Origin: Escherichia coli
GTDB taxonomy: Bacteria; Pseudomonadota; Gammaproteobacteria; Enterobacterales; Enterobacteriaceae
Assembly: GCF_016903815.1 (NCBI RefSeq)
Contig: NZ_CP069973.1
Length of the DNA: 64,000 nt
Reading direction: 5' to 3' (one strand)
Shown: piece after piece, positions 6,355 through 10,039 of the stretch
How positions within the stretch are numbered: position 1 is the stretch's first letter
How the letters are laid out: each line of letters starts with the position of its first letter
Program-made: the position numbers and the translations under genes
Notes under the pieces: generated by a model
The model's database searches: none
What the model was told of the DNA's origin: nothing
The model's input: the letters and a program-made list of their open reading frames with translations, nothing else

Positions 6355-6428
6355 GGGCTGCACCATGATGTGAATGTTGCACCAATATAGTGCTTCAATG
6401 GAAACATTAAGCACCATATTGGTGCAAT
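6355..6428 (-). promoter_or_regulatory. NtrC enhancer sites upstream of glnA
   Basis: Repeated TGCACCA...TGGTGCA-type palindromes (tgcaccatgatg..., ttgcaccaatatagtgc, gcaccatattggtgca). Confidence 0.75.
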
Positions 6429-6577
6429 GACCTTTGGATAACCCTTTTTATGCTCCGTGAAAGCAATCACAAAGGGACTCTGCAATACTTGTTTGCGGAG
6501 GATGTTTGTGATCCTGTTTTGTAGTGCGATTAATCCGTGTACAATAACGCGCTATTTCTAATGCCTGAGGCAAAGTT

Positions 6578-8401
6578 GTGATCGAAAAATTGCGTAATAT
6601 CGCCATCATCGCGCACGTAGACCATGGTAAAACCACCCTGGTAGACAAGCTGCTCCAACAATCCGGTACGTTCGACTCTCGTGCCGAAACCCAAGAGCGC
6701 GTGATGGACTCCAACGATTTGGAGAAAGAGCGTGGGATTACCATCCTCGCGAAAAACACCGCTATCAAATGGAATGATTACCGTATCAACATCGTTGATA
6801 CCCCGGGGCACGCCGACTTCGGTGGTGAAGTTGAACGTGTAATGTCCATGGTAGACTCAGTGCTGCTGGTGGTTGACGCATTTGACGGCCCGATGCCGCA
6901 AACGCGCTTCGTAACCAAAAAAGCGTTTGCTTACGGCCTGAAGCCGATTGTTGTTATCAACAAAGTTGACCGCCCTGGCGCGCGTCCTGACTGGGTTGTG
7001 GATCAGGTATTCGACCTGTTCGTTAACCTCGACGCGACCGACGAGCAGCTGGACTTCCCGATCGTTTACGCTTCTGCGCTGAACGGTATCGCGGGTCTGG
7101 ACCACGAAGATATGGCGGAAGACATGACCCCGCTGTATCAGGCGATTGTTGACCACGTTCCTGCGCCGGACGTTGACCTTGACGGTCCGTTCCAGATGCA
7201 GATTTCTCAGCTCGATTACAACAGCTATGTTGGCGTTATCGGCATTGGCCGCATCAAGCGCGGTAAAGTGAAGCCGAACCAGCAGGTCACTATCATCGAT
7301 AGCGAAGGCAAAACCCGTAACGCGAAAGTCGGTAAAGTGCTGGGCCACCTCGGTCTGGAACGTATCGAAACCGACCTGGCGGAAGCTGGCGATATCGTGG
7401 CGATCACGGGCCTGGGCGAACTGAACATTTCTGACACCGTTTGCGACACGCAAAACGTTGAAGCGCTGCCGGCACTCTCCGTTGATGAGCCGACCGTTTC
7501 TATGTTCTTCTGCGTTAACACCTCGCCGTTCTGCGGTAAAGAAGGTAAGTTCGTAACGTCTCGTCAGATCCTGGATCGTCTGAACAAAGAACTGGTACAC
7601 AACGTTGCTCTGCGCGTAGAAGAAACCGAAGACGCCGATGCGTTCCGCGTTTCTGGTCGTGGCGAACTGCACCTGTCTGTTCTGATCGAAAACATGCGTC
7701 GTGAAGGTTTCGAACTGGCGGTATCCCGTCCGAAAGTTATCTTCCGTGAAATCGACGGTCGTAAACAAGAGCCGTATGAAAACGTGACTCTGGACGTTGA
7801 AGAACAGCATCAGGGTTCTGTAATGCAGGCGCTGGGCGAACGTAAAGGCGACCTGAAAAACATGAATCCAGACGGTAAAGGCCGCGTACGTCTCGACTAC
7901 GTGATCCCAAGCCGTGGTCTGATTGGTTTCCGTTCTGAGTTCATGACCATGACTTCCGGTACGGGTCTGCTGTACTCCACCTTCAGCCACTACGACGACG
8001 TACGTCCGGGTGAAGTGGGTCAGCGTCAGAATGGCGTACTGATCTCTAACGGTCAGGGTAAAGCGGTAGCGTTCGCGCTGTTCGGTCTGCAGGATCGCGG
8101 TAAGCTGTTCCTCGGTCACGGTGCAGAAGTTTACGAAGGTCAGATTATCGGTATTCATAGCCGCTCTAACGACCTGACTGTAAACTGCCTGACCGGTAAG
8201 AAACTGACCAACATGCGTGCTTCCGGTACTGACGAAGCCGTTGTTCTGGTTCCGCCTATCCGCATGACTCTGGAACAAGCTCTGGAGTTCATCGATGATG
8301 ACGAACTGGTAGAAGTGACTCCGACCTCTATCCGTATTCGTAAACGTCACCTGACGGAAAACGATCGTCGTCGCGCCAACCGCGCACCGAAAGACGATTA
8401 A
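6578..8401 (+). CDS. typA: Ribosome-associated translational GTPase BipA/TypA
   Basis: 607 aa, GTG start; G-domain motifs [22 protein letters not shown]-like domains. Confidence 0.95.
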
Positions 8402-8419
8402 TTTCGTTTTTTAGTTATA

Positions 8420-8451
8420 AAAAACCTGCCATCGCTGGCAGGTTTTTTTTT
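8420..8451 (+). terminator. Rho-independent terminator of typA
   Basis: cctgccatcgctggcagg stem followed by T9 run. Confidence 0.8.
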
Positions 8452-8454
8452 GTG

Positions 8455-9160
8455 CACAGAAAACCCCCAGCTAGGCTGGGGGTTCCGGAAAGCTTTCAGC
8501 TTTGAGCCAGTTATTAAAACCCCTTTTGATTTGTTAAAACACCTTGCGGTCTGGCAACTGCAAGTGTCAAACAAGAAATCAAAAGGGGGTCCCAATGGGG
8601 AACGAAAAGAGCTTAGCGCACACCCGATGGAACTGTAAATATCACATAGTTTTTGCGCCAAAATACCGAAGACAGGTGTTCTACAGAGAGAAGCGTAGAG
8701 CAATAGGCAGTATTTTGAGAAAGCTGTGTGAGTGGAAAAGCGTACGGATTCTGGAAGCTGAATGCTGTGCAGATCATATCCATATGCTTGTGGAGATCCC
8801 GCCCAAAATGAGCGTATCCGGGTTTATGGGATATCTGAAAGGGAAAAGCAGTCTGATGCTTTACGAGCAGTTTGGTGATTTGAAATTCAAATACAGGAAC
8901 AGGGAGTTCTGGTGCAGAGGGTACTACGTCGATACAGTGGGTAAGAACACGGCGAAGATACAGGATTACATAAAGCACCAGCTTGAAGAGGATAAAATGG
9001 GAGAGCAGTTATCGATTCCCTATCCGGGCAGCCCGTTTACGGGCCGTAAGTAACGAAGTTGGATGCAAATGTCAGATCGTGTGCGCCTGTTAGGGCGCGG
9101 CTGGTAAGAGAGCCTTATAGGCGCATTTGAAAAACCTCCGGCTATGCCGGAGGATATTTA
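8455..9160 (+). mobile_element. IS200/IS605-family insertion sequence (IS200-like, ~0.7 kb); ends approximate
   Basis: Single tnpA with HxH Y1-transposase signature, structured leader (cccccagctaggctggggg hairpin and RBS-sequestering stem) typical of IS200; no inverted repeats expected for this family. Confidence 0.7.
8595..9053 (+). CDS. tnpA: IS200-family Y1 (HUH) transposase TnpA
   Basis: 152 aa from ATG 8595: MGNEKSLAHTRWNCKYHIVFAPKYRRQVFY...HIHMLVEIPPK...; HxH motif and Tyr-containing C-terminal region. Confidence 0.85.
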   Translation: MGNEKSLAHTRWNCKYHIVFAPKYRRQVFYREKRRAIGSILRKLCEWKSVRILEAECCADHIHMLVEIPPKMSVSGFMGYLKGKSSLMLYEQFGDLKFKYRNREFWCRGYYVDTVGKNTAKIQDYIKHQLEEDKMGEQLSIPYPGSPFTGRK

Positions 9161-9328
9161 TTACCTGTCGTGAGCGCACACCAATGCGAGTATCTCCCTT
9201 ATAAGTCTGTGATTACGTCAATAGAGAGCTTTGTCACAATTATCTGCAAAGTCATACACCGTTAATTGCTTTCTTTTTTGGCGTAAGCGTAAGATGCTTC
9301 ATCTGGTTTAAACCAAAAGGATTAAACA

Positions 9329-10039
9329 ATGGCGGAGAATCAATCCACCGTAGAAAATGCAAAAGAGAAACTGGATCGGTGGTTGAAAGATGGCATCACC
9401 ACGCCGGGTGGAAAACTCCCTTCAGAAAGAGAGCTGGGAGAACTGCTGGGCATTAAACGTATGACGCTGCGCCAGGCGTTGTTGAACCTCGAGGCAGAAT
9501 CCAAAATCTTCCGTAAGGATCGTAAGGGGTGGTTCGTGACCCAGCCGCGATTTAATTACAGTCCGGAGCTGTCAGCGAGCTTTCAGCGGGCCGCAATTGA
9601 GCAAGGACGAGAGCCTTCTTGGGGGTTTACCGAGAAAAACCGTACCAGCGATATTCCCGAGACGCTCGCGCCACTGATTGCAGTGACACCATCAACTGAA
9701 CTCTATCGCATCACCGGCTGGGGGGCGCTGGAAGGACATAAAGTTTTCTATCACGAAACATATATTAATCCTGAAGTTGCTCCGGGTTTTATTGAACAAC
9801 TTGAAAACCACTCATTTTCTGCAGTCTGGGAAAAGTGCTACCAGAAAGAGACGGTAGTAAAAAAATTGATTTTCAAACCCGTCAGAATGCCGGGCGATAT
9901 CAGCAAGTATCTTGGCGGTTCTGCGGGTATGCCAGCGATCTTAATTGAAAAGCATCGCGCCGACCAGCAAGGCAATATTGTCCAGATAGATATTGAATAT
10001 TGGCGATTTGAGGCCGTAGACCTCATCATTAATCTGTAG
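9329..10039 (+). CDS. yihL: GntR-family HTH transcriptional regulator (UTRA effector domain)
   Basis: 236 aa; N-terminal wHTH (SERELGELLGIKRMTLRQAL); K-12 order typA-yihL. Confidence 0.85.
   Translation: MAENQSTVENAKEKLDRWLKDGITTPGGKLPSERELGELLGIKRMTLRQALLNLEAESKIFRKDRKGWFVTQPRFNYSPELSASFQRAAIEQGREPSWGFTEKNRTSDIPETLAPLIAVTPSTELYRITGWGALEGHKVFYHETYINPEVAPGFIEQLENHSFSAVWEKCYQKETVVKKLIFKPVRMPGDISKYLGGSAGMPAILIEKHRADQQGNIVQIDIEYWRFEAVDLIINL

Follow-up and report, generated by a model that had tools for sequence, protein, structure and literature searches.

The stretch of DNA analysed here (the window) comprises 64,000 nucleotides of Escherichia coli, identical at 64,000 of 64,000 bases to strain 7/2 (NZ_CP023820.1, 4389499-4453498), and carries on its plus strand an insertion element between typA (6578-8401) and yihL (9329-10039). 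Directly upstream of the element lies the intrinsic terminator of typA (8424-8451, +), which consists of the hairpin CCTGCCA-TCGC-TGGCAGG followed by nine T residues; it is supported by RNAfold, and its uninterrupted presence in L001, L003 and many other empty sites identifies it as native host DNA that served as the insertion target. Alignment to the empty typA-yihL junction of strain CFSAN061762 (L003) defines an insert of 711 bp at 8452-9162 (+), the placement of which is ambiguous by TT (8450-9160 to 8452-9162) because both the T-run 5' of the insert and the insert itself end in TT. The empty site reads ...CCTGCCATCGCTGGCAGGTTTTTTTTT|ACCTGTCG..., with the element exactly at the end of the T-run and oriented the same way as typA. 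Many complete E. coli genomes contain, over its entire length and with 100% identity, the empty site predicted by joining 8150-8451 to 9163-9460; since the empty site equals the two flanks joined, the insertion was precise, without duplication or deletion, in line with the expectation that no target duplication would be seen. The site is also empty in K-12 ER2796, which contains no other match to the element. The original prediction had placed an IS200-family element with a single-ORF Y1 transposase at 8455-9160, directly after the typA terminator and in a position empty in K-12; family and position are confirmed, as is the region, while the exact ends fell three bases short on the left and two on the right. 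It should be mentioned that the simple scan used for promoters missed this terminator, whose stem is probably prolonged into the T-run by the A6/T6 sequences that flank it, and that it was RNAfold and a purpose-made rule that detected it.

Because it starts only after the typA terminator and the start codon of yihL is a further 167 bp away from its end, the insertion is probably neutral. The segment from the typA stop codon to the terminator (8386-8454, +) scores 53.0 bits against the Rfam family STnc370, an enterobacterial sRNA, for which the gathering score is 54, and the typA 3' end may be a 3'UTR-derived sRNA locus with IS200C immediately after it. Several other features of the window were recorded. 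An ES222 sRNA lies upstream of typA in the glnA-typA spacer (6389-6496, +), and matches to naRNA4 (CssrE; 58131-58208, -) and ES036 (CssrF; 63213-63254, -), two RNA families that presumably derive from REP repeats, occur further downstream. A yiiG pseudogene lacking its N-terminus is located at 40788-41429 (+). Another mobile-element insertion is present between fabY and an alpha/beta hydrolase gene, where RefSeq annotates at 28510-30324 (+) a hypothetical pseudogene truncated at its C-terminus and then a 'transposase' (WP_077634137.1). The Rfam SECIS_3 match (84 bits; 39032-39090, -) falls within the formate dehydrogenase alpha-subunit gene (36622-39672, -), as expected for a selenoprotein; RefSeq labels this gene fdnG, yet it belongs to an fdoH-fdoI-fdhE operon.

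The element is named on the basis of the RefSeq/PGAP annotation of identical copies: a query of 706 bp is 100% identical to copies annotated as IS200C, and the identical protein WP_000526135.1 is entered in RefSeq as 'IS200/IS605-like element IS200C family transposase'. Its transposase gene, tnpA, is a single ORF that runs from an ATG at 8595 to a TAA at 9053 (+) and encodes 152 amino acids, including the peptides HTRWNCKYHIVF and HIHMLVEIPP. In Pfam the protein is assigned to Y1_Tnp (E=3.8e-38), and in NCBIfam to the equivalog transpos_IS200 (147.7 bits, E=1.9e-43, against a cutoff of 55); its nearest relatives in the PDB are TnpA proteins of the IS200/IS605 family, among them those of IS608 (2a6m, 3.9e-19) and ISDra2 (2xm3, 1.9e-16). 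No frameshift was seen, and both the HuH motif (H61-I-H63) and the catalytic tyrosine (Y125) are intact; the latter is the residue that was replaced (Y125F) to obtain a catalytically dead transposase in published work (Ellis et al. 2015).

It was considered whether the gene might instead be a RAYT (TnpA-REP), that is, a domesticated single-copy relative. RAYT/REPtron transposases share the HUH-Y1 fold class with the present protein and, with a tetranucleotide as guide, act on hairpin DNA, a weak match to NCBIfam REP_Tyr_transpos was indeed obtained (32.2 bits), and the naRNA4 and ES036 matches lie elsewhere in the window. That score is nevertheless far below the cutoff of 80, whereas transpos_IS200 is well above its own; moreover, RAYTs are single-copy and flanked by REP sequences, whereas the gene described here is present at about 22 places in the genome, at varied locations and with IS200 ends rather than REP arrays. 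Family scores and copy-number pattern together rule out a RAYT identity, which is to be considered extremely improbable. Likewise, many members of the IS200/IS605 family carry tnpB, and the ORF could in principle be part of a larger element of the IS605/IS1341 type with tnpB or IscB, in which case the boundaries given above would be wrong. The 711 inserted bases adjoin typA-terminator DNA on one side and yihL-upstream DNA on the other, which are contiguous in empty sites, so that there is no tnpB in the element; tnpA is the only family-supported sense-strand ORF of at least 50 amino acids inside it, and all 13 E. coli copies retrieved are 711 bp long with identical ends. The larger element is accordingly ruled out by the empty-site comparison and deserves practically no credence. 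IS200C consequently has tnpA as its sole gene, with tnpB and iscB absent from the 711-bp insert and from its ORF list. Both points on which the original prediction could have failed were checked, and an IS match was found while a tnpB partner was not. Neither a second copy nor a fragment of IS200C was detected in the 64-kb window when it was searched with the left-end hairpin (up to three mismatches) and with Rfam. With the empty site of CFSAN061762, the synthetic empty site and the identical annotated copies in agreement, and with nothing found that contradicts the identification, it is almost certain that 8452-9162 is an intact IS200C of the IS200 group (IS200/IS605 family), which is the best explanation of the locus. 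This is an ordinary copy, already known both as a kind of element and as a sequence.

IS200C has no terminal inverted repeats, its termini GTGCACAG... and ...ATATTTATT being unrelated, and the structure of its ends resides in two subterminal hairpins. The left-end hairpin cccccagctaggctggggg (8464-8482, +; element nt 13-31, numbered from 8452) has an 8-bp stem and a TAG loop, and 0.02 matches to it would be expected by chance in the window. At the right end, a hairpin with an 8-bp stem and a TAT loop (9135-9153, +), which obtains a terminator-like score on both strands, is identical to the left-end hairpin at 14 of 19 positions in the same orientation; in each of the two stem pairs that differ between them, both partners have changed (C-G to T-A and A-T to G-C). 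It is followed by the tail ATATTTATT (9154-9162, +), which is invariant in the 13 E. coli copies and the last five bases of which, TTATT, resemble the target pentamer. The foot of each hairpin is adjoined on its 5' side by AAAA, at 8460-8463 (+) on the left and, within an A-run at 9130-9134, at 9131-9134 (+) on the right. The tetranucleotide that IS608 carries 5' of its hairpin foot acts as a guide by pairing, in part through A:T pairs, with the site of cleavage or the target, and insertion of the left end is always 3' of that target. By analogy to the left guide of IS608 (GL AAAG, target TTAC) and to its right guide (GR), these tetranucleotides are candidate left and right guides, and an AAAA guide would specify a T-rich target.

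Such features are shared with IS608 of H. pylori and ISDra2 of D. radiodurans, which possess a homologous Y1 transposase and subterminal hairpins, lack terminal inverted repeats, produce no duplication and place their left end 3' of a short specific target, with a tetranucleotide guide 5' of the hairpin foot. On the other hand, both carry tnpB, which IS200C does not, and their targets (TTAC and TTGAT, respectively) differ from the TT(T/A/G)TT of IS200C. From the homology of its transposase to the TnpA proteins of these two elements, we infer that IS200C would transpose by single-strand 'peel and paste', a reading that finds indirect support in the occurrence of polymorphic identical copies among close relatives. 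By this analogy, the top strand would leave as a circle of single-stranded DNA and be inserted on the 3' side of a short, T-rich sequence, TT(T/A/G)TT, for the recognition of which the A-run on the 5' side of the left hairpin foot may be responsible. The GC skew of the plus strand (+0.02) fits a position of the top strand on the lagging-strand template, the preference of the family, at a value too weak to serve as evidence.

The left-end hairpin also opens the leader of tnpA, and here the element can be read against the IS200 of Salmonella enterica, the prototype of the group, which is likewise 707-711 bp long, encodes a single 152-aa TnpA with Y125, and has its left-end terminator hairpin, its Shine-Dalgarno stem, its ATG (nt 144) and the position of its antisense RNA art200 at the same coordinates. 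In that element nt 12-34 have been described as a bidirectional rho-independent terminator which shields tnpA from impinging outside transcription, while the stem in which the Shine-Dalgarno sequence is sequestered occupies nt 69-138 and tnpA transcription starts at about nt 40 (Ellis et al. 2015). The hairpin at 8464-8482 fits the former interval and, according to this literature, is a transcriptional insulator without a role in translational repression; by analogy, it is presumably also the left-end hairpin bound by TnpA. The second structure is a long stem-loop at 8520-8588 (+; element nt 69-137), in which CCCC(U)4GAUUUG pairs with CAAAUC(A)4GGGG (MFE -43.9 kcal/mol, z=-3.4). It agrees with both the published interval and the structure of Rfam STnc490, and it buries the Shine-Dalgarno sequence AAGGGGGU (AAGGGGGT; 8583-8590, +), which can be read directly and is the same as that published for IS200. 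The tnpA ATG falls on element nt 144, as in the published element. Of the leader hairpins that had been proposed to repress translation, it is therefore the second stem only that is the translational repressor, the first being the left-end terminator.

The leader (8462-8585) matches Rfam STnc490 (RF01405), a model named after a Salmonella sRNA, with 146 bits (E=3e-31) and is nearly identical to its consensus. The match is on the tnpA-sense strand and takes in the left-end hairpin; since the published STnc490/art200 sRNA is antisense to the tnpA start region, the match marks the locus and not the strand of the sRNA, and what the model captures appears to be the structure of the sense strand. 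Transfer of coordinates from Salmonella IS200 puts the approximate tnpA transcription start (nt ~40) at 8491 (+), a position taken from the literature only, and the expected place of art200, about 90 nt long with 5' ends at element nt 153/154, at about 8516-8605 (-). A simple scan of 8300-9400 found no sigma-70-like promoter for either tnpA or art200, a result which agrees with the reported 'intrinsically weak promoter' and confirms nothing. By eye, the minus strand shows a candidate art200 promoter, in which TTTACA (8639-8634) and TAAGCT (8615-8610) are separated by 18 nt. By analogy with Salmonella IS200, expression of tnpA would be kept very low by the left-end terminator hairpin and a weak promoter near nt 40, as well as by the Shine-Dalgarno-sequestering stem in the 5'UTR and antisense art200 with Hfq.

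The textbook view of IS200, formed on Salmonella, is that it rarely moves, and the original prediction had carried this view over to the present element, a view with which its distribution in this lineage is at odds. Among 5,426 complete E. coli genomes, IS200C-like DNA is present in 3,096 and full-length copies in 2,063, and the typA-IS200C junction was found in 51, each of which contains 18-35 places that match the element. Genome-wide counting in strain 7/2 gave 22 matching places, and two copies retrieved from this genome were 100% identical; this compares, for an E. coli variant with some 20 or more copies in the lineage, with seven copies of IS200 in S. Typhimurium SL1344. In several genomes that contain IS200C at about 20 other places, the flanks are 100% identical to those of the window and the typA site is empty, from which it follows that IS200C has moved recently in this part of the species. 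Strains 50579417, AR_0067 and YDC107 are examples of such an empty site between identical flanks. Accordingly, the high copy number and the 100% identity of copies point to a recent expansion in this lineage.

It has been proposed for Salmonella that IS200 is kept as an immobile, domesticated relic for its RNA products (the 5'tnpA sRNA and art200), and the copy at typA could be seen in the same light, given that the tnpA 5'UTR of Salmonella is processed into a regulatory sRNA, that IS200 has been described as apparently not mobile, and that the leader described above departs so little from the Rfam consensus. Nevertheless, the ORF, the catalytic residues and both ends are intact, and the 18-35 matching places, the identical copies at different loci and the close relatives with identical flanks and no copy argue against immobility; furthermore, a role of the RNA and mobility are not mutually exclusive. 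A relic is hence an improbable reading of this copy, and an element that has been active recently in E. coli, against the reputation of IS200 as nearly immobile, is preferred.

ST405 is a globally spread multidrug-resistant clone, and its published members figure among the carriers of the typA-yihL junction: both WCHEC96200 and KY1497, the carriers checked against the literature, have been published as ST405, while a further carrier, WCHEC4533, was analysed in the literature among the relatives of an ST405 isolate. The site, which is filled in 51 genomes and empty in K-12 as well as in relatives whose flanks are identical, marks a sub-lineage to which published ST405 strains belong; this upholds the suggestion that the element could be used to mark lineages and provides a precise marker that can be tested by PCR.

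The position directly after a terminator is not particular to typA. In a sample of 13 E. coli copies at 12 independent loci (L004-L015 and the window), IS200C lies downstream of typA, glyS, ompX, pheP, cspB, ccmH, kdsA, fbaB, mdh, yiaY and a hypothetical gene in EcN, and in the galR-aas spacer, which in K-12 we take to be the place of the OmrA/OmrB sRNA genes. At 12 of 12 loci, the left end is situated directly 3' of a GC-rich hairpin and T-run in the same orientation, and the 5' flank ends in TTTTT (eight loci), TTGTT (two) or TTATT (two), the last of these being the sequence in which IS200C itself ends. Under a strict rule that demands a perfect stem, 10 of the 12 sites still qualify, whereas of the TT(T/A/G)TT sites of the window the rule admits 3% overall and 10% when the intergenic ones are taken by themselves (binomial P ~8e-9).

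The same arrangement extends to other taxa. The exact 19-nt left-end hairpin was found in at least 120 stretches of species-representative genomes (L018-L137), with hosts that include, among the matches listed, Yersinia pestis (IS1541), Vibrio, Brenneria, Dickeya, Edwardsiella and Oxalobacter, as well as Mailhella/Desulfovibrio, Bacillota, Elusimicrobia and Saccharibacteria. Its occurrence across Proteobacteria, Desulfobacterota, Bacillota, Elusimicrobia and Saccharibacteria MAGs, for which binning errors are possible, suggests either wide horizontal spread or strong constraint. Among these listed matches, a terminator-like hairpin with a T-tail ends at the element boundary in 87 of 97 unique, non-tandem left-end flanks, as compared with a background in the same loci of 7.9% of T-rich pentamers (TTNTT) that follow a hairpin. 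A close parallel is IS1541 of Y. pestis, in which the 19-nt left-end hairpin is identical, the right-end hairpin and ATATTTATT tail are the same and placement is again after a hairpin and T-run; its left end reads GTGCCCAGAAAA, against GTGCACAGAAAA in IS200C, with one base different in the 12-nt leader. IS1541 also forms tandem copies, of which there are none in the E. coli sample of IS200C. In Y. pestis NCTC5923 (L112, L113, L115), two copies are directly joined as ...CCGGAGGATATTTATT|GTGCCCAGAAAA..., with left-end hairpins 710 bp apart, and since the left end of one copy is joined to the right end of another, the right end has served as an insertion target.

Two further contexts of the 19-nt hairpin were noted in this survey. 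On the minus strand of L089 (Dickeya undicola), the hairpin lies at the centre of a 43-bp perfect palindrome, GTCTATAGAAAA[LE hairpin]TTTTCTATAGAC, which has a terminator T-run on one side and, on the other, an A-run with a second hairpin after it. The palindrome has no transposase gene beside it and resembles either the remnant of a solo left end or a derivative of mini-palindromic type. In Ruminococcus MAGs (L047, L100-L110), the hairpin occurs in a right-end-like context, GTTAAAGAAATA[hairpin]ATGCTTATT, after which the flank is variable, and this seems to be a different multi-copy element with many copies at contig ends.

It has been reported in a recent preprint (2025-26; 10.1101/2025.07.22.666184) that sequences resembling terminators are enriched upstream of ISs, most strongly in IS200/IS605, and these upstream terminators were read as limiting transposase expression. 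In addition, expression of sRNAs immediately upstream has been described for two IS200 copies of Salmonella (Sittka et al. 2008), and an ST38 genome paper characterized the sites of IS200C simply as 'T-rich', with nine of ten copies listed under 'T-rich region' and the tenth within a prophage, while several IS1 copies were inside genes. The literature examined, a scope outside which the primary IS200/IS1541 papers and the family review fall, does not state that the host terminator itself is the recognised target, and nothing was found in it that connects IS1541 with terminators. The association with terminators is thus largely known, and only a structure-specific targeting mechanism would be new.

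Whether such a mechanism operates is the question on which the data invite two readings. According to the first, what IS200-group elements choose as target may be the intrinsic terminator, in the form of structured single-stranded DNA, and not just the T-rich pentamer, a proposal for which we consider the chances even. The hairpin and T-run of the target, on the strand of the T-run, resemble the right-end hairpin and its ATATTTATT tail, and TnpA might capture the terminator as a pseudo-right end; alternatively, it could make use of a T-run that lies exposed beside a hairpin, be it on the template of the lagging strand or in a termination complex that has paused. An adjacent target hairpin is not a required part of the target in the description of IS608. 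According to the second reading, a simple T-rich target without any hairpin recognition, together with purifying selection for harmless sites, would suffice to produce the post-terminator placement. Sites after terminators are neutral, the rule of the family needs a target of only 4-5 nt, and the ST38 paper mentions nothing beyond T-richness in its wording of the sites, so that this explanation has to be taken seriously. However, a hairpin precedes one tenth of the intergenic background sites in the window, and fewer still in the other taxa, while it precedes the large majority of IS sites in both samples; copies that are 100% identical, and hence recent, are still found at terminators at every one of the E. 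coli loci; and within the ST38 genome IS1 is partly intragenic while IS200C keeps almost entirely to its T-rich regions. Moreover, the element's own right end, a hairpin with a T-rich tail, was used as a target in the Y. pestis tandems. For these reasons selection acting on simple T-rich sites is regarded as the less probable of the two, although a possible one.

Targeting of structured DNA, if true, would explain the co-oriented position of these elements just after genes, their near harmlessness and their tandem copies, and it would also account for the sRNAs 'just upstream' of the Salmonella IS200 copies. In conclusion, the left end of these elements abuts a terminator at about 90% of sites across distant phyla, and if this reflects true recognition, it would amount to a structure-dependent rule in the target selection of the family; recognition of the terminator, if experiments confirm it, would explain why IS200 elements are so well tolerated by their hosts.
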